Source: Candidatus Pacearchaeota archaeon (GTDB lineage Archaea > Nanobdellota > Nanobdellia > Pacearchaeales > GW2011-AR1). Taken from it: a stretch of DNA of 43,189 bases. Positions 7,180 to 43,186 of this stretch are shown here, piece by piece. The first letter of the stretch is position 1. Each line of letters opens with the position of its first letter. The notes beneath the pieces are model-generated. The model did not search any database, had not been told where the DNA came from, and was given only the letters and a program-made list of their open reading frames with translations. The stretch covers positions 1-43,189 of the forward strand of contig NZCQ01000002.1 in assembly GCA_002688335.1 (NCBI GenBank), written 5' to 3'. Position numbers and translations under genes: made by a program.

Positions 7180-7701
7180 ATGACAGATTCAAACACACAC
7201 GAAGAACAAAGCTATCTTGATGCAATTGTCTCCTTTCTCACAGCACAAGAAGTAACTCACTATGAAACAGAAATCTCTGATGGAGAGAATTTTGTAATGG
7301 GGTATGGAAACACTCCCGAAGAATCTCAAGAAAATGCAAGTGAGCAATGGGATGAATATGGAGGTTCAAATGATGATGAAGGAGATTGCTGTTATTTAGT
7401 CAGCGCATGTCTTGATGCCAAAGAATTGCCAAGAAGTTCGCCTGAAATGAAAGCCATGAAACATTTAACTAAAAGTTTCATATTACAATCTTTCCAAGGA
7501 AGAAGAGATTATATATCTTACAAAAGAAAAGCTCCGGGAATTGTCCAAGCAATAAAAGATAGAAAAGAAGCTCAAGATATATGGGATGGAATCCACAAAA
7601 AATTGGAAACAATAGCATCATCAGTTCATTCAAATAACCTTAGGGAAGGACATAGGTTATACAAGGAACTGGTTTTAGATTTAGAATCAAGATATATCTA
7701 A
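7180..7701 (+). CDS. Hypothetical protein with an acidic N-terminus and a Cys-containing CCYLVSAC motif
   Basis: ORF track. Strong AGGAGGT Shine-Dalgarno 7 nt upstream. Visibly richer in G+C than its neighbours. Confidence 0.5.
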   Translation: MTDSNTHEEQSYLDAIVSFLTAQEVTHYETEISDGENFVMGYGNTPEESQENASEQWDEYGGSNDDEGDCCYLVSACLDAKELPRSSPEMKAMKHLTKSFILQSFQGRRDYISYKRKAPGIVQAIKDRKEAQDIWDGIHKKLETIASSVHSNNLREGHRLYKELVLDLESRYI

Positions 7702-7795
7702 AGAGAATTTTGTATAAACGCGATTTCCAAAGGAAATTTGGTAAAATTCTCTATTAGAAACCGAGAAAAATAGAGTTTTTCAAAGTTTTCTAAAC
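7701..7795 (+). repeat. R1 double-hairpin repeat, copy 1
   Basis: Outer stem AGAGAATTTT/AAAATTCTCT encloses inner stem ATTTCC-AAA-GGAAAT, followed by a second hairpin module (GAAAAA..TTTTTC). It starts at the stop codon of the preceding gene. Confidence 0.7.
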
Positions 7796-8091: not shown

Positions 8092-8610
8092 ATGAAAATA
8101 TATCTTTCTGGAGATCATGCAGGATTCAAATTAAAAGAGAAAATAAAGTCTTGGCTAAGAAATGAATATGGAAAAAATTTTTACAACTCCCCTGGGTGGG
8201 CGGGTGGGTTGAGAGATAACAGTCGTAAAAATTCTTCTATAGAAATCGAAGATTTCGGACCTCTAGAATATAATGAGAAAGATGATTATCCAGACTTCGT
8301 AATTCCCATGGCCAGAGAAATTGTCAAAAATAAAAATAGTAAGGGTATAATTATCGCAGGATCAGGTCAGGGCGAATCAATAGCCACAAATAAACTAAAA
8401 GGAATCAGGGCAGGATTGTATCATGGAGGAAGCACTAAAATTGTTAAAACAGGAAGGGCACACGATAACATTAACATATTATGCCTAGGATCAAGATTCG
8501 CTAGCGAGAAAGAGGCTAAAAAAGCCATAAAGAGTTTCCTAGAAACTCCATTTAATAAAGGCAGGCACTCAAGAAGACTAAATAAACTCAAACACCTAGG
8601 AAGTAAATGA
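8092..8610 (+). CDS. rpiB: Ribose-5-phosphate isomerase B (LacA/B family) carrying an 18-aa insertion
   Basis: MKIYLSGDHAGFKLKEKIKSWL..DDYPDF..IIIAGSGQGESIATNK.KGIRAG..NILCLGSR..PFNKGRHSRR matches RpiB family motifs. Confidence 0.85.
   Translation: MKIYLSGDHAGFKLKEKIKSWLRNEYGKNFYNSPGWAGGLRDNSRKNSSIEIEDFGPLEYNEKDDYPDFVIPMAREIVKNKNSKGIIIAGSGQGESIATNKLKGIRAGLYHGGSTKIVKTGRAHDNINILCLGSRFASEKEAKKAIKSFLETPFNKGRHSRRLNKLKHLGSK
8178..8231 (+). repeat. 54-nt hairpin-ended G-quadruplex element, copy 1 (inside rpiB, in frame)
   Basis: TTTTTACAACTCCCCTGGGTGGGCGGGTGGGTTGAGAGATAACAGTCGTAAAAA. By my count 48/54 positions are identical to 18467-18520. Confidence 0.85.
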
Positions 8611-17049: not shown

Positions 17050-17062
17050 TTCTTAAATTCAA

Positions 17063-17235
17063 AATCATCTGAGTAATCAGGAGACCACACCTTAAAAGGT
17101 GTGAGATTACTCTAGATCCTAACCAATGAAAATCAAGTAGATTTTCGTGGCCCTCAAAATCGTAGATTTTGTCGGAAACAAGGGCCTGTAACAAACCACA
17201 CCCTCTATGTGGTGGCCCATTGTTTTTTTGATGTT
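17063..17235 (-). repeat. R2 two-hairpin element, copy A (candidate ncRNA or cis-regulatory leader)
   Basis: Its reverse complement aligns with 36929-37098. The two share AACATCAAAAAAACAATGG, ACCACA..GGTGTGGTTTGTTACAG, TAGGATCTA.AGTAATC and GATTACT.AGAT, with compensatory stem changes. Confidence 0.7.
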
Positions 17236-17236
17236 C

Positions 17237-17485
17237 TTATTGATCACTCTTATGATACAAATCTAAAACATATACTACGCTCTTATCCCTTAAGTAAGCA
17301 TAAGACAACCTGAATGGTTTTGCATATAATTCTCTTGTTTCTTTCCTATTATGTTGCATTGGTTTCCCAATTTCAGGATATTCAGATATTTTCTTAATTT
17401 GGTTTATTATTTTTTCCCTTAACAGATCATTCTTGATCTTGGAGAATGTTTTAGCAAAATTTTTATCAAAACGCACCTCTACCAT
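17237..17485 (-). CDS. RelE/StbE-family toxin
   Basis: 82 aa, basic. It overlaps the upstream acidic ORF by 7 nt. FRLSYAYLRDKSVVYVLDLYHKS is a typical C-terminal core. Confidence 0.7.
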   Translation of the reverse strand: MVEVRFDKNFAKTFSKIKNDLLREKIINQIKKISEYPEIGKPMQHNRKETRELYAKPFRLSYAYLRDKSVVYVLDLYHKSDQ

Positions 17486-17661
17486 TTATTCATTTCTTCT
17501 AAATTTTCAGAATCCATACTAAGGTACTCTCCAGAATCTATCCTACTCTGTGCTTCTTCAGTCCTTCTTGCAAACTCTAAATCTTCCTTGAACCTCTCAA
17601 ATTCCACCCTTAAATTCTGCAATTCTAGATTCATTTTCTCAAGAGAAGGTCCTTGTTCCAT
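17479..17661 (-). CDS. Putative antitoxin
   Basis: 60 aa, acidic and helical, coupled to the toxin. Confidence 0.5.
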   Translation of the reverse strand: MEQGPSLEKMNLELQNLRVEFERFKEDLEFARRTEEAQSRIDSGEYLSMDSENLEEMNKW

Positions 17662-17708
17662 AACAAAACATGCCCTAATAATTTATATAGTTTTGCATAA
17701 TCTAAGAT

Positions 17709-18455: not shown

Positions 18456-18466
18456 CTTACCTCTTA

Positions 18467-18520
18467 TTTTTACAACTCTCCTGGGCGGGTGGGCGGGTTG
18501 AGAGATTACAGTTGTAAAAA
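18467..18520 (+). repeat. 54-nt hairpin-ended G-quadruplex element, copy 2 (intergenic, 11 nt upstream of the epimerase start on the opposite strand)
   Basis: TTTTTACAACTCTCCTGGGCGGGTGGGCGGGTTGAGAGATTACAGTTGTAAAAA, with perfect 11-nt terminal inverted repeats. Confidence 0.85.
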
Positions 18521-18724
18521 TTACACACATTACAAATAAAGAATAATATTTAAATGTAATGTGAACCAATTTACCTTCAAGCTAACCTTTTCAAAAAAGA
18601 TATTACTCCATCGTTTTTTTGATTTATCAATTACCAAAAACTTTAATGAAGCAACTAAGCGGAGCTAGTTGCGAAACATAAAACAAATCAACAGCTTTAA
18701 AAAATCAAATCAACTTTCAATAGC

Positions 18725-21801: not shown

Positions 21802-21833
21802 AAGAATCGAACTTCCGACTTCTTGGTGTAAAC
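21802..21833 (-). repeat. Partial, degenerate copy of tRNA-Val (T-arm to anticodon loop)
   Basis: AAGAATCGAACTTCCGA (17/17) and GGTGTAAAC match 22553-22584. No acceptor or D-arm is present. Confidence 0.7.
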
Positions 21834-22542: not shown

Positions 22543-22613
22543 TGGGCGTAGGAAGAATCGAACTTCCGAATCCTCGGTGTAAACGAGGTGGTTTGCCACT
22601 AGCCTATACGCCC
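22543..22613 (-). tRNA. tRNA-Val (TAC)
   Basis: Folded by hand: GGGCGTA..CCTCG TTTACAC CGAGG..GGAAG TTCGATT CTTCC TACGCCC A. The D-stem has one mismatch. Confidence 0.85.
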
Positions 22614-30025: not shown

Positions 30026-30123
30026 GAAATATCTTTATCCACAATAATTTATAAGCATATATATAGAAAAAAACATACTTAGAAGGGAGTTTAAAATTAC
30101 ATTATTTCAAGGGCCTCTACAAA

Positions 30124-30627
30124 TTAAAAGTCATGCAAACCTTCCAAGGTCAAGAATGATTTCGCTTGCTCTATAAACTCGCTAACTTCTTCAAAAACCC
30201 TATCCTCATATCCCTTAATTCTCTCCTTTATGATATATTTGTCATATATTTCCCTCAAACGTTTAAAAAACATATTTTCCCATTCACCATTAACATCCTT
30301 CATCAGAGAAGCCGAGAAAGTTACCTCTAAAGTACCAGAATCCATGGAAACTTCCTGCCCATTTTTCTTAACCTGAACCTTCTTCATACCTAAGATTATC
30401 CAATCAATCTTTATCTCTATCCCAAAGTAATTAGATAAATCGCTAGTAGCCACCCAGCCTATTTCAACTTCCTTAGAATCTCCCTTAGTTTTCTCCAGAT
30501 ATCTAGCCTCATGTAAATCATAACCAAAATCAACAATAGTCACATATAAAAACTCATAAAAATCTTTAAAGTTAAAAATACCAGATTGTTTTATCTTTCC
30601 TTTATAAACACTATCTTTTTCAGCCAT
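30124..30627 (-). CDS. Orphan protein, tandem paralog B
   Basis: MAEKDSVYKGKIKQSGIFNFKDFYEFLY.. is clearly paralogous to the upstream gene. Confidence 0.55.
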   Translation of the reverse strand: MAEKDSVYKGKIKQSGIFNFKDFYEFLYVTIVDFGYDLHEARYLEKTKGDSKEVEIGWVATSDLSNYFGIEIKIDWIILGMKKVQVKKNGQEVSMDSGTLEVTFSASLMKDVNGEWENMFFKRLREIYDKYIIKERIKGYEDRVFEEVSEFIEQAKSFLTLEGLHDF

Positions 30628-30653
30628 ATTATAATTCACAAACAATAAAATAA

Positions 30654-31154
30654 TCAACGTTGACCTTCAACTGCTAAGAATGATTTTGCCTGTGCGATCG
30701 CTTCTTTAATCTCTTCGAAAAGCTTAATTCCATAATCATCTATCCTCGACTTAATAATATATCTATCATAGATTCCCCTCAAAAACTTCCAAAACGGAGC
30801 ATTTTCCCACCGATTCTCCCAATCACGCACAAGAACAGAATCAAATTTTATCTCTAAAGTTCCAGAATCCATACTAACCTCTTCCCCTTCTTTCTTAACC
30901 TTAACTTTCTTCATCCCCAAAATAAACCAATGAGCAGAGATCTCAAAACTAAAATAATCCGAAACCTCCTTAATAGCCGTCCACTTAATCTCAACATCTT
31001 TAGAATCTCCCTTAATCTTCTCAACATATTTCTTCTCAATAATATAATAATTCTCATCAACAAGATAATCATATAAAAACTCATAAAAATCTTTAAAATT
31101 AAAAATACCAGACTGTCTAATCTTTCCCTTGTATATCCTATCTCTCTCAGCCAT
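30654..31154 (-). CDS. Orphan protein, tandem paralog A
   Basis: MAERDRIYKGKIRQSGIFNFKDFYEFLY..ILGMKKVKVKK.G.EVSMDSGTLE.. with GAGGT upstream of the ATG at 31154. Confidence 0.55.
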   Translation of the reverse strand: MAERDRIYKGKIRQSGIFNFKDFYEFLYDYLVDENYYIIEKKYVEKIKGDSKDVEIKWTAIKEVSDYFSFEISAHWFILGMKKVKVKKEGEEVSMDSGTLEIKFDSVLVRDWENRWENAPFWKFLRGIYDRYIIKSRIDDYGIKLFEEIKEAIAQAKSFLAVEGQR

Positions 31155-31168
31155 AACAACTACCTCTC

Positions 31169-31267
31169 TAAGAACCTTATATATTTGACATTTGCGAAGC
31201 AAATCGCATATAAAGTTCTTCTTAGAGAACGAGAAAAACGGAGTTTTTCAAAGTTCTCTTCATAAAC
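31169..31267 (+). repeat. R1 double-hairpin repeat, copy 2
   Basis: Outer stem AGAACCTTATAT/ATATAAAGTTCT, inner stem ATTTGC-GAA-GCAAAT, then AGAGAAC-[GAAAAAC GGA GTTTTTC]-AAAGTTCTCT. Confidence 0.7.
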
Positions 31268-31303
31268 AAAACAAAAAGCATATTTAAATATGTTGATTTA
31301 AAA

Positions 31304-31807
31304 CTAATCCCTACAATCCCGGCAAACCAATCTATCATCAACACTATACAAAAGATCAAATTTCTCGCATTTATCGCATATTCCTTCTTTAATGACATTC
31401 CCTACTTCCTTTCTTTCATATCCTTCTTTAGCAATCTCAAATAATTCCGGCTGAATCCTCAAAACATCTTTCAAAGTTAAAATACCAATAACTTTCTTCT
31501 TAATAACAACCGGCAGTCTTCTAAATTTAGACCTCCTCATAGTCCTAACAGCATCATGAATATCTGCTGAAGGCCTTATAGTTGTTATCTTCCTTGTACA
31601 AATATCCTCAACCACCACATCCTTCAAATCTCTCTTCTTACTCAAAGCCCACATAACATCCTTCTCCGTTAAAATTCCCTTCAGAATTCCTCGATCTTGT
31701 AAAATCAAACTACCCACCCTCTTTTTAACCATCAAATCAACTGCAGAAAGAACAGAGATATCTGGCCTAACAGAAATAAATGAACGCGCCATAACATCTC
31801 CTACCAT
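31304..31807 (-). CDS. CBS-domain pair protein with a C-terminal zinc ribbon
   Basis: Two CBS-like units (VGDVMARSFISV.. and ICTRKITTIRP..), then CDKC..(13)..CRDC. Confidence 0.75.
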   Translation of the reverse strand: MVGDVMARSFISVRPDISVLSAVDLMVKKRVGSLILQDRGILKGILTEKDVMWALSKKRDLKDVVVEDICTRKITTIRPSADIHDAVRTMRRSKFRRLPVVIKKKVIGILTLKDVLRIQPELFEIAKEGYERKEVGNVIKEGICDKCEKFDLLYSVDDRLVCRDCRD

Positions 31808-31960
31808 TATGCCTAATTTTATTCCACTTTTCACCAATCAATTAAGCTAAGCAAACTTTTATAATTATCGAATCCACATAATAATATACTCAATAATATA
31901 TTTTACAGAATATATATTTACACTTAAAAATATTTAAAAGTCAAATCACTAAGTAATTAT

Positions 31961-36344: not shown

Positions 36345-36515
36345 TAAAGAGACACTCACTTTTCCACAGATACTAAAGAGAACTTTGCATAATTGACATT
36401 TCCGAAGGAAATCACAGCAAAGTTCTCCAAACATTAAGTAAGATGAATTACAGGAGCTAACAATATTTCTAGCGAGGAAATTTGACGAAGTCAATTTCGA
36501 AAGCTGATTTATTAA
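36345..36515 (+). repeat. R1-related structured locus, copy 3 (candidate sRNA)
   Basis: AGAGAACTTTGC..ATTTCC GAA GGAAAT..GCAAAGTTCTC, plus a downstream hairpin GAAATTTGAC GAA GTCAATTTC. Flanks are homologous to 38662-38920. Confidence 0.55.
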
Positions 36516-36662
36516 ATCAATCTGAAAAATTATTTAAATTATGGAAAAAGAATCAAAAGTTCCATAAAAAACCTGTAATCCGCTTTCAGTAGTAATTATC
36601 ATCCAAAATCTTTAAAAACCGATTAAATTTCCTTAACGTAAGTAAACAACCATATTTTAAAA

Positions 36663-36881
36663 ATGGAAGAAGAAATGACAAATAATGAAATGGTTTCAGA
36701 AGAAACTTCTGAACCAACATCTGTTGAAACAACTGAATCAGAAACATCTGATGCAGAAGCTGAAACAACACCAGAAGATGCAACAGCAGATACAGAAGAA
36801 ACAGAGGAAGAAGTAGAAGAAGCCCTTAGTGATGGGGACGATTCTATTGAAACAGATCCCTCTGAAGAAGATTCAGAATAA
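36663..36881 (+). CDS. Extremely acidic 72-aa protein (E/D/T/S-rich)
   Basis: ORF track. It is low-complexity, so its coding status is uncertain. Confidence 0.35.
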   Translation: MEEEMTNNEMVSEETSEPTSVETTESETSDAEAETTPEDATADTEETEEEVEEALSDGDDSIETDPSEEDSE

Positions 36882-36928
36882 ACTCGTTTTTATCTAACTT
36901 ATTTTTATTTATTATTTTATTTATTTTT

Positions 36929-37098
36929 AACATCAAAAAAACAATGGCGCACCACACCTTAAAATCTCAATAACTTTTAGTTCTTGATGATCATACAGAT
37001 CCTTGAGGGGTGTGGTTTGTTACAGCGCCTTGTTTTTAGGATCTACAGTAATCACCACACTCTGAAGAGTGTGGTTCTCTCAGATTACTGAGATAATT
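36929..37098 (+). repeat. R2 two-hairpin element, copy B
   Basis: See copy A. The lower stem is GGCGC/GCGCC here versus GGGCC/GGCCC in copy A. Confidence 0.7.
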
Positions 37099-38661: not shown

Positions 38662-38900
38662 TTAAGACTCACACATTCGAAAACAGATCATATCTCTCTA
38701 AAGAGAACTTTGCATAATTGACATTTCCGAAGACTTCAATTTCTTTGAAGTTGAATGTGTCAGGAATTTTAATTCCTGAGGAAATCACAGCAAAGTTCTC
38801 TCTTAGAGGAGTTTGAAATTGCATTATTTCAAAGTTCTCTAAAGGTAATTGTAGACATTTCAAAACGTTAGCGAAGGAACTTGGCAAAGCCAGTTCCGAG
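38662..38900 (+). repeat. R1-related structured locus, copy 4, with a 47-nt two-hairpin expansion in the inner loop (candidate sRNA)
   Basis: AGAGAACTTTGC..ATTTCC GAAG[ACTTCAA TTTC TTGAAGT..CAGGAATT TT AATTCCTG]A GGAAAT..GCAAAGTTCTCT, then a second module, then GGAACTTGGC AAA GCCAGTTCC, ending in a T5 run. Confidence 0.6.
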
Positions 38901-42014: not shown

Positions 42015-43186
42015 ACCCAATTAATTTGTTAATTCTAATAAGAAAAAGGAGGTAATGATATGGGCAAGCCGATTACTCGGCTCAACCCAAAGATAGAATC
42101 TTCAATCCAGAAGACCTTTCTTGAAAAAGCTATTGGACTTCTATTATCGATTGCAATGATTTTACCAGATCAAGCGATTGTAAAACGAGGTCCTAAGCCT
42201 TATGATTATAGGAAAGTGTTAGTTATATGTGTTTTGAGAGTTCTTTTGAGGAAGACCTATGCTGATTATGAAATTGAGATGAGAACCGATAAGCGAATCT
42301 GTGATCCTCTTGGGCTCACAATCCTTCCAGGAAAGAGTACTCTTCAAAGAGGGATGAATAACTTCACAATGGATTTGCTAAGAGAGTTTAACAAACTATT
42401 AATCCAGAAATGGATTAATAGAAAGCTAGACGTTCTAATCGATGCTTCGGGGATTAGGATCGTTGGTAGAAGCATTTGGTATTCACTGAGAATAAAAGAG
42501 AAGATTTCCCGTCGAGAATGTGATAAAATTCACCTTGCAGTATGTAAAGACACGCTACTTGTTTTGAACTGGTTTATAACTGAAGGAAGGAAACACGACT
42601 CCCCATTCTTTAGAAGATTGTTAGCCCCATTCAATTGGTTAGGTGAAGTGTTAGCTGATGCGGGTTATTTATCTAGGAAGAACTATCAGTTTGTAACTGA
42701 TAGAAAAGGTGCAGCGTTCATTCCATTTAAGAAAAATTCTACTGGCAAACCTAAAAGCTATCCTGCTTGGAAATGGGCTTTTAACTTATGGAAAGCAGTT
42801 CCAATGATCTTCAAGGGAATTTACAATCAGCGATCAAAGGTGGAGATGGTATTTTCTGTTTTGAAGAAACGCTATGGAGATCAACTCTATAGTAAGGGAG
42901 CTTATCGAAGACGGAGAGAATTCGCCTTGAGGTTACTAGCTTATAATACCAAACTAGTAATTTGTTTAGAATATGCTTTGGAGAATAATCTTTCTTGTTG
43001 GGTTCGAGCTAAACAGTGATAATATGGTCTAAAAAGGGAAGCTTACTAGCCGTAGCTCTGATAGATTTTGCATTAATAATACTAAGGGAGATTTCAGCTT
43101 GGCAAAGCCTGCTGAAATTAACAATAGAATTCTAATTTTGAGAAAATTAGCTAGAATTGTTATGAGATTTTATTTGGGATGAAGCC
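41993..43186 (+). mobile_element. IS5/IS4-superfamily insertion sequence with imperfect terminal inverted repeats
   Basis: The left end GGCTCCATCCCAAATTAA matches the reverse complement of the right end GGCTTCATCCCAAATAAA (43186 backwards). A single DDE transposase gene lies inside. Confidence 0.75.
42060..43019 (+). CDS. DDE transposase (DDE_Tnp_1, IS5-like)
   Basis: DASG.., ADAGY.., then NQRSKVEMVFSVLKKRYG (conserved E with a K/R signature). AGGAGGT Shine-Dalgarno upstream. Confidence 0.85.
   Translation: MGKPITRLNPKIESSIQKTFLEKAIGLLLSIAMILPDQAIVKRGPKPYDYRKVLVICVLRVLLRKTYADYEIEMRTDKRICDPLGLTILPGKSTLQRGMNNFTMDLLREFNKLLIQKWINRKLDVLIDASGIRIVGRSIWYSLRIKEKISRRECDKIHLAVCKDTLLVLNWFITEGRKHDSPFFRRLLAPFNWLGEVLADAGYLSRKNYQFVTDRKGAAFIPFKKNSTGKPKSYPAWKWAFNLWKAVPMIFKGIYNQRSKVEMVFSVLKKRYGDQLYSKGAYRRRREFALRLLAYNTKLVICLEYALENNLSCWVRAKQ

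Follow-up and report, generated by a model that had tools for sequence, protein, structure and literature searches.

The two structured elements present in the window, i.e., the 43,189 nucleotides of Candidatus Pacearchaeota DNA analyzed here, are best explained, with a probability of about 0.7, as copies of a multi-copy, non-coding and non-autonomous interspersed hairpin repeat of DPANN archaea, comparable to the REP/BIME or BOX repeats. The DPANN hairpin repeat constitutes a new family, of a kind (REP/BIME- and BOX-like repeats) that is already known. It is highly probable that the family is selfish or semi-selfish, and from its distribution we infer that it is mobile. A previous sequence-only reading had described the two copies as a gene-linked structured RNA; this is unsupported, because the element is a multi-copy repeat in random orientation, and homologous loci occur without it.

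As described in that reading, the reverse complement of positions 17063-17235 and the stretch 36929-37098 can be aligned over the blocks named there, while the ends had to be moved by a few nucleotides to those given in Table 1, since the boundaries ATC...AT are set by about 40 further copies of the family. The compensated stem of hairpin 1 reads GGGCC/GGCCC in copy A and GGCGC/GCGCC in copy B, and that of hairpin 2 reads CACACC/GGTGTG and CCACACTC/GAGTGTGG, respectively. The two-hairpin structure with covarying stems is real: folding z-scores versus dinucleotide shuffles were -5.5 for copy A and -6.8 for copy B, and the predicted hairpins form in each. Two 28-nt arms are 93% complementary. 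Exact matches to the 19-mer AACATCAAAAAAACAATGG and to the 17-mer GGTGTGGTTTGTTACAG occur twice each in the window, as compared to chance expectations of 0.18 and 0.03 matches, respectively, allowing up to 3 mismatches. With the covariance model R1, which was built from module A alone, copy A obtained 67.3 bits (E 3.7e-13, span 17166-17232) and copy B 78.5 bits over 36932-37045. The insertions lie, as proposed, at permissive sites, namely the apical loop of hairpin 1 in copy B and the linker in copy A. The latter insertion splits the T-run after hairpin 1 and contains the mini-hairpins AAAATC..GATTTT and GAAAATC..GATTTTC; similar mini-hairpin modules are present in other genomes. The first AT of unit 2 of copy A is common to this unit and the TAGGAT closing unit 1. 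A candidate third copy on the minus strand, recognizable as ATCAAAAAAACGATGG plus AGTAAT, is not significant, having 3 mismatches to the 19-mer and a model score of 14.7 bits (E 1.1).

Table 1. Positions, strand and organization of the hairpin repeat copies and of further short repeats in the window
Feature	Position	Strand	Organization	Basis
Element copy A, complete, 166 nt	17067..17232	(-)	Hairpin unit 1, linker with two mini-hairpins, hairpin unit 2	Sequence, alignment to copy B, family boundaries
Copy A, hairpin unit 1 (module A)	17176..17232	(-)	ATCAAAAAAACAATG-GGCC-ACCACA-loop-TGTGGT-TTGTTACA-GGCC-CTTGTTT	Covariance model R1
Copy A, linker insertion, 54 nt	17122..17175	(-)	Two mini-hairpins	Sequence, predicted fold
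Copy A, hairpin unit 2 (module C)	17067..17117	(-)	ATCTAGAGTAATC-TCACACC-loop-GGTGTGG-TCTCCT-GATTACTCAGAT	Sequence, alignment of marine-type module C
Element copy B, complete, 163 nt	36932..37094	(+)	Hairpin unit 1 with nested loop insertion, hairpin unit 2	Sequence, fold, model match
Copy B, apical-loop insertion of hairpin 1, 42 nt	36965..37006	(+)	Degenerate mini-hairpins	Alignment to copy A and locus L113
Copy B, hairpin unit 2 (module C)	37041..37094	(+)	Diverged paralogue of unit 1	Model match
Possible degraded left-end remnant	18585..18626	(-)	ATCAAAAAAACGATGG plus AGTAAT	Statistically unsupported
Third short repeat family	7698-7791, 30086-30119, 31165-31259, 36373-36407, 38698-38841			

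A search of the whole window with Rfam 15 at gathering thresholds returned four tRNAs and nothing else, and for both copies hits at E values of up to 10 were noise, so that no known RNA family matches the element. Likewise, no description of the hairpin repeat was found in the literature on MITE or REP elements of DPANN archaea, Woesearchaeota or Pacearchaeota. A Woesearchaea genome with a high density of MITEs has been reported, with nothing more specific (PMC11602168), and the repeat is not mentioned in PMC12306157 and PMC13343696.

Scanning one genome per prokaryotic species for the 16-mer core GTGTGGTTTGTTACAG yielded about 80 single matches, mostly bacterial, plus 22 loci from three DPANN MAGs, i.e., 16 copies on 15 contigs of Nanoarchaeota C20_maxbin.123, six contigs of Pacearchaeota WB01no4_31_21, and one contig, with a single copy, of a Woesearchaeota MAG. 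Many copies in the DPANN MAGs are located less than 200 nt from a contig end, a pattern characteristic of repeats at which assemblies break. Nineteen further contigs were retrieved from JGI and Tara metagenomes by a gapped-pattern search, and in 253 kb of DPANN loci the covariance model detected about 57 forward-strand matches, which represent 42 distinct sequences. The family thus occurs in MAGs of Nanoarchaeota, Pacearchaeota and Woesearchaeota as well as on marine and other JGI metagenome contigs, and the genome-wide census, by disclosing more copies in several DPANN genomes and on many metagenome contigs, indicates that it is not private to the genes of the window. The window derives from Tara Oceans marine metagenomes. 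Its thermosome gene identifies the organism as an archaeon, and the closest named homologue of one of the window proteins is from a Pacearchaeota archaeon.

Among 80 non-DPANN loci (bacterial and other) matching the 16-mer, the covariance model recognized one true copy (L080:940-1092, 65.9 bits), which carries mini-hairpins nested in the loop and is located on a 3-kb contig assigned in binning to a CPR bacterium, Candidatus Dojkabacteria. The contig probably belongs to a DPANN archaeon and was mis-binned, cross-domain presence being the alternative. Viral carriage of the repeat found no support, as IMG/VR viral contigs contained no true copy when searched with a 14-mer or with the gapped pattern. 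Two contigs were sampled without selecting for the repeat, and each of them, the 43-kb window and a 26.7-kb Tara contig, contains two copies; extrapolation from these two contigs suggests dozens of copies per DPANN genome. Since DPANN genomes are very small and streamlined, the presence of a structured repeat on both unselected contigs is a useful observation in itself.

The basic hairpin unit of about 55-75 nt comprises ATC and a lower arm rich in A, then a short, variable stem and ACCACA(N)-loop-(N)TGTGGT, followed on the 3' side by a conserved bulge, which in unit 1 is TTGTTACAG, by the return arms and by a final AT. Module A, which is present in all copies, consists of ATCAAAAAAACAATG, a stem of 3-5 nt, ACCACA(N), the loop, (N)TGTGGT, the bulge TTGTTACAG, the return stem and CTTGTTTTTAGGAT. 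All copies are closed by module C, a long hairpin; its lower stem has an entirely different sequence from one subfamily to another (CTAGAGTAATC / GATTACTCAGAT; TTAGAAAAAAT / ATTTTTTCTAAAT; GCTCGAGAATTGAAAAC / GTTTTCAATTCTCGACAT) but pairs in every case. As the module A model matched module C of copy B from end to end (37041-37098; 30.8 bits, E 1.7e-4), the two hairpins are diverged paralogues. A standard element corresponds to module A plus module C, the two being separated by 0-3 mini-hairpins, the 5' arms of which are rich in A and the 3' arms rich in T, and up to three elements occur in tandem, so that the 30 complete copies are mosaics of 92-216 nt. Mini-hairpins nested in the apical loop are found in copy B and at loci L113, L062, L089, L050, L056 and L080. 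The units are joined head-to-tail in such a way that the AT of TAGGAT doubles as the AT of the ATC of the next unit; in the array of three tandem elements at L089, two successive junctions read ..GACAT-CAAAAAA.. (hyphen at the junction).

Terminal inverted repeats beyond AT(C) were not found in the 30 complete copies: the left end, ATCAAAAAAAC, and the reverse complement of the right end, which is ATGTCGAG, ATCTCAGT or ATTTAGAA, have only AT(C) in common. Target-site duplications were not detected in these copies either, direct matches between the two flanks amounting to 0-3 nt, which is the chance level for AT-rich DNA. At the left junction, only AT is invariant. The invariant AT at both tips is conceivable as a 2-bp duplication, yet it is paired in the terminal hairpin and is common to the internal junctions. 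The possibility that further copies would reveal a plain MITE, as considered in the sequence-only reading, is borne out only in that such copies exist; their stems covary, and neither target-site duplications nor terminal inverted repeats are present.

For module A, 96.2% of the pair cells in 22 distinct sequences are standard, as compared to 38-55% when the 3' partners are slid, and two-sided changes occur in 9 of 22 pairs; the observed values were not reached in any of 500 shuffles. In the marine-type module C, compensatory change was observed in 8 of 18 pairs. Copies from different genomes diverge by compensatory substitutions, as exemplified by the closely related strain L113, which is 98.4% identical to the window over 1.25 kb and shows a double change from A-T to G-C in the closing stem (AAACGATGG..CCTCGTTT in L113 versus AAACAATGG..CCTTGTTT in the window). 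Within a genome, on the other hand, copies are identical: the module A sequences of 14 copies from C20_maxbin.123 agree except for the last base, and their flanks are unrelated. Identity within the genome in unrelated flanks suggests a recently amplified or homogenized repeat rather than a set of independently maintained regulatory RNAs.

The ratio of G.T to A.C mismatches in the stems is 14:6 in the curated set and 17:15 in a larger, model-fitted set that includes degenerate copies, and so leans mildly towards the strand common to both copies (minus for A, plus for B) as the one that carries the fold. The random orientation relative to genes and the lack of conservation in the left flank make a promoter-driven RNA unlikely, and selection on the folded DNA strand seems to fit the data better. 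Alternatively, an RNA or DNA function beneficial to the host could underlie the strong conservation of the stems and the invariance of the bulge, which extend over marine and non-marine lineages.

The genomic context was surveyed at about 40 loci, using crude ORF calls. All copies surveyed are intergenic. The upstream gene is on the same strand as the repeat in 17 cases and on the opposite strand in 15, the corresponding numbers for the downstream gene being 17 and 12, and the 22 fully resolved contexts are distributed over (+,+), (-,-), (+,-) and (-,+) with 7, 4, 5 and 6 cases, respectively; the orientation relative to the flanking genes is random. The genes downstream of copies A and B, which had been regarded as unrelated orphans, are indeed unrelated to each other, but they are not orphans: for the 112-aa Zn-ribbon protein encoded after copy A, 25 homologues other than itself were found, with identities of 56-67%, and for the 161-aa protein encoded after copy B, 95. 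None of the examined loci of these homologues in other organisms contains a copy of the element. The distance to the downstream ATG, previously given as 25-45 nt, is 17 nt for copy A, i.e., for the Zn-ribbon gene, and 48 nt for copy B, and copy A starts 4 nt, rather than 3 nt, past the stop codon of the ParE/RelE toxin gene.

In the window, about 660 nt (17050-17708), holding an antitoxin gene, the ParE/RelE toxin gene and element A, part an epimerase gene from the Zn-ribbon gene, whereas in the Pacearchaeota genome GCA_016181895.1 (L261:1749-2851) the epimerase and Zn-ribbon genes overlap (ATGA), with no toxin-antitoxin pair between them and no element detectable by the covariance model. When L113:1-360 is compared to window positions 36600-36931, homology starts no more than about 12 nt from the left end of copy B; upstream of the element, L113 contains a different gene, coding for 80 aa, the TGA of which overlaps the first AT of the element. 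Two contigs from the same samples, L255 and L256, stop just before the copy B junction. A search for an empty site in a near-identical strain, made by exact-protein look-ups of flanking genes, retrieved nothing beyond the same strain and L113. Genes of NTase/HepT-type toxin-antitoxin systems are enriched among the neighbors of the copies.

At four loci (L086:4154-4288, L115:84-200, L128:277-394 and L132:6262-6376), the terminal AT of the repeat together with the following G forms the ATG of the downstream ORF. At L086, moreover, a TATA-like TTTATATAAA abuts the left end of the repeat, the whole of which would then be 5' UTR.

At two loci of Nanoarchaeota C20_maxbin.123 (L008:1-360 and L041:1-200), the repeat directly adjoins the gene of a DUF772 (IS5/IS1182-like) transposase, which has the N-terminus MVYIKSNPEQTILLPTDMR. 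In both cases the insertion point is after ..TTTTTTCTGCAC, which is the same position of the repeat in two different copies. The insertion sequence has its own conserved end, GAGGYTGTGTCACAATTA, and homologous copies at L103 and L107 lack the repeat, indicating that it inserted into the repeat. With its ends unrelated and its L103 and L107 copies free of the repeat, it was ruled out as the parent. The recurrent insertion point suggests that the IS5/IS1182-like element may have a target preference for the repeat; some bacterial insertion sequences show a target preference for REPs. The transposase of this insertion sequence is the only one linked to the repeat, and the flanking DNA that was sampled yielded neither an autonomous partner nor a candidate transposase. 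Specifically, tblastn searches of about 250 kb of flanking sequence with an approximate IS608 TnpA query and a Pfam scan of 58 neighboring small proteins, both weak tests, did not reveal a Y1/HUH transposase. A DDE_Tnp_1 (IS4/IS5-type) transposase gene is located near the right end of the window (42060-43019, plus strand); the sequences on either side of it show no relationship to the hairpin repeat.

REP and BIME elements are mobilized by the RAYT Y1 transposases, the genes of which are typically flanked by REPs. Like these elements, the DPANN repeat is a multi-copy, strictly intergenic, imperfect hairpin with a conserved sequence tag and covarying stems, organized in multi-hairpin mosaics devoid of terminal inverted repeats and target duplications, expected to have terminator or mRNA-stabilizing side effects, and subject to IS insertion, here by the IS5/IS1182-like element at the same point in L008 and L041. 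However, its unit is longer (55-75 nt, as compared to 20-40 nt for REP), its units are arranged head-to-tail instead of in the alternating orientation of REP/BIME, and in place of a GTAG or CGTC tag it has the conserved motif ACCACA..TGTGGTTTGTTACAG and an ATC start. Its host is an archaeon, and no RAYT was found in about 250 kb of flanks by the weak tests mentioned. The BOX elements of Streptococcus pneumoniae (boxA-boxB(n)-boxC) share with it conserved first and last modules, a variable number of short middle ones, a length of about 100-200 nt, strong folding, an intergenic location and a mobilizing enzyme that is not known. There is no sequence relationship, though, and in the DPANN repeat the first and last modules are paralogous hairpins, and mini-hairpins also nest in apical loops.

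The ends of IS200/IS605 elements and of PATEs (e.g., of Haloquadratum; PMC3119063) resemble the DPANN repeat in that two similar hairpins lie subterminally and point the same way, while inverted termini and target duplications are absent; a short sequence is fixed at the left junction and right tip, here AT, and would allow tandem insertion. A two-base target would be unusually short, the PATE type having a conserved left target of 4-5 nt, and no TnpA or TnpB is linked to the DPANN repeat. Classical MITEs (Correia/NEMIS, RUP, Sulfolobus SM1-SM4) are likewise small, non-coding, amplified in the genome and intergenic, and can carry terminator- or promoter-like signals, but differ from it in their terminal inverted repeats and target-site duplications; moreover, no insertion sequence near the DPANN repeat proved to have matching ends and thus to be a parent. 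As it lacks what defines a canonical MITE or a strict REP, the repeat is best described as working like both while being a member of neither.

To account for these features, we propose that the repeats are spread or homogenized as DNA by a trans-acting enzyme that would recognize a folded single strand, the recognized feature being a hairpin in which the bulge and the base of the stem are conserved, as in REP/RAYT or at IS200/IS605 ends, and AT possibly being the junction or target. Recognition of a folded single strand would explain that pairing is kept together with an invariant unpaired motif, that inverted termini and target duplications are absent, and that the junctions have a fixed AT. 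A mechanism specifically involving single-stranded DNA is put forward as a tentative possibility; it is rather doubtful that the hairpin unit (ACCACA..TGTGGT, the TTGTTACAG bulge and the AT junctions) is the substrate of a DPANN single-stranded-DNA recombinase or transposase. If it were, repeat and enzyme would form the archaeal equivalent of the REP/REPIN-RAYT partnership of bacteria, maintained over the long term across Pacearchaeota, Woesearchaeota and Nanoarchaeota, with the repeats shaping the turnover of gene cassettes (toxin-antitoxin pairs, synteny breaks) in reduced genomes. When transcribed, a hairpin situated between A7 and T5-7 could act on either strand as a hairpin-plus-oligo-U stop or as a protector of the mRNA end; transcription termination by the repeat may thus be incidental.

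Termination might instead be what is selected, if the repeat were a host-domesticated terminator, insulator or mRNA-end stabilizer with a transcript-level function, the copy number reflecting need. Hairpins with A- and T-runs would then halt the archaeal RNA polymerase at the oligo-U tract or shield mRNA 3' ends, in both directions, in genomes that are very compact. Archaeal transcription terminates at oligo-T, and REP and BIME elements of E. coli have terminator or mRNA-end stabilizer activity; consistently, the A7-hairpin-T5/6 arrangement is conserved, so that both strands end in a hairpin and a T-run, and the stop codon of a co-oriented upstream gene is mostly 5-61 nt away (several up to about 200 nt, a few farther); copy A lies 4 nt past the ParE stop codon. 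We nevertheless consider this explanation unlikely, because in 6 of the 22 fully resolved contexts the flanking genes diverge and need no terminator between them, because at L086, L115, L128 and L132 the repeat abuts a start codon and so belongs to a 5' UTR, not to a 3' end, and because the invariant bulge, the common AT junctions, the nested mini-hairpins and the within-genome identity are left unexplained. The hairpin followed by T7 that ends the opposite strand, correctly noted in the sequence-only reading, might also point to a small-RNA gene running from the module C side to hairpin 1 and T7. This is very improbable, as there is no conserved promoter beyond the right end, where flanks are unrelated, the middle part varies by modules, and the excess of G.T mismatches in the curated set mildly favors the other strand. 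A promoter and terminator scan used bacterial-type models, which are uninformative for an archaeal host.

The original proposal of a cis-acting structured RNA, such as a leader or a riboswitch-like element controlling the next gene downstream, agrees with the covariation of the stems, with the stable fold and with the co-orientation and proximity of both window copies to a downstream gene, but it is largely refuted by the distribution and is the least probable of all readings: the roughly 40 loci show no orientation bias, downstream genes are unrelated from locus to locus, the examined homologues of the 112-aa and 161-aa genes lack a copy, copies within a genome are identical and break contigs, the module content varies, and there is no Rfam family. 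Slightly better than this and the small-RNA gene, albeit still a very slim prospect, is a recombination site bounding movable gene cassettes, either a folded site similar to integron attC or a substrate for homologous recombination from copy to copy, by which neighboring genes such as toxin-antitoxin pairs would be shuffled. It would account for the start of the L113 homology (98.4%) next to the left end of copy B with another gene upstream, for the contigs from the same samples ending just ahead of that junction, for the toxin-antitoxin pair adjoining copy A and missing from the related genome, and for the enrichment of NTase/HepT-type genes. However, the copies are scattered and do not form arrays beside an integrase, attC-type R'/R'' core sites are not evident in the sequence, and a lone synteny break may also be due to an ambiguous assembly or to ordinary homologous recombination among the repeats.

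A mobile interspersed repeat, the reading preferred here, has practical consequences, although it does not involve a new biological principle. In annotation, the hairpins will be taken for riboswitch-like RNAs, and the repeats fragment MAG assemblies; with respect to genome dynamics, they coincide with a synteny break and an inserted toxin-antitoxin pair; as mobile elements, they point to a mobilizing activity in archaea. The hairpin repeat is also usable as a marker of DPANN lineages.

The window contains further repeated sequences. A second repeat is present in two direct-orientation copies (8177-8233 and 18466-18522; 89% identical), each a 57-nt hairpin (ATTTTTACAACT...AGTTGTAAAAAT) around four G-tracts (GGGNGGGNGGGNGGG), which in an AT-rich genome represent a potential G-quadruplex. 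A third short family, composed of CTAAAGAGAACTTTGCATAATTGACATTTCCGAAG and its inverted partner GGAGTTTGAAATTGCATTATTTCAAAGTTCTCTA, occurs in several intergenic regions (Table 1), two of its copies being 100% identical. A 32-nt fragment (21802-21833), located about 750 nt from the intact tRNA-Val gene, is 91% identical to part of this gene (22553-22584) and may represent a duplicated attachment site that an integrated element left behind. On the minus strand at 30124-31837, there are three adjacent paralogous genes of 177-182 aa, two of which share a 300-nt stretch with 73% identity (30321-30620 and 30848-31147).
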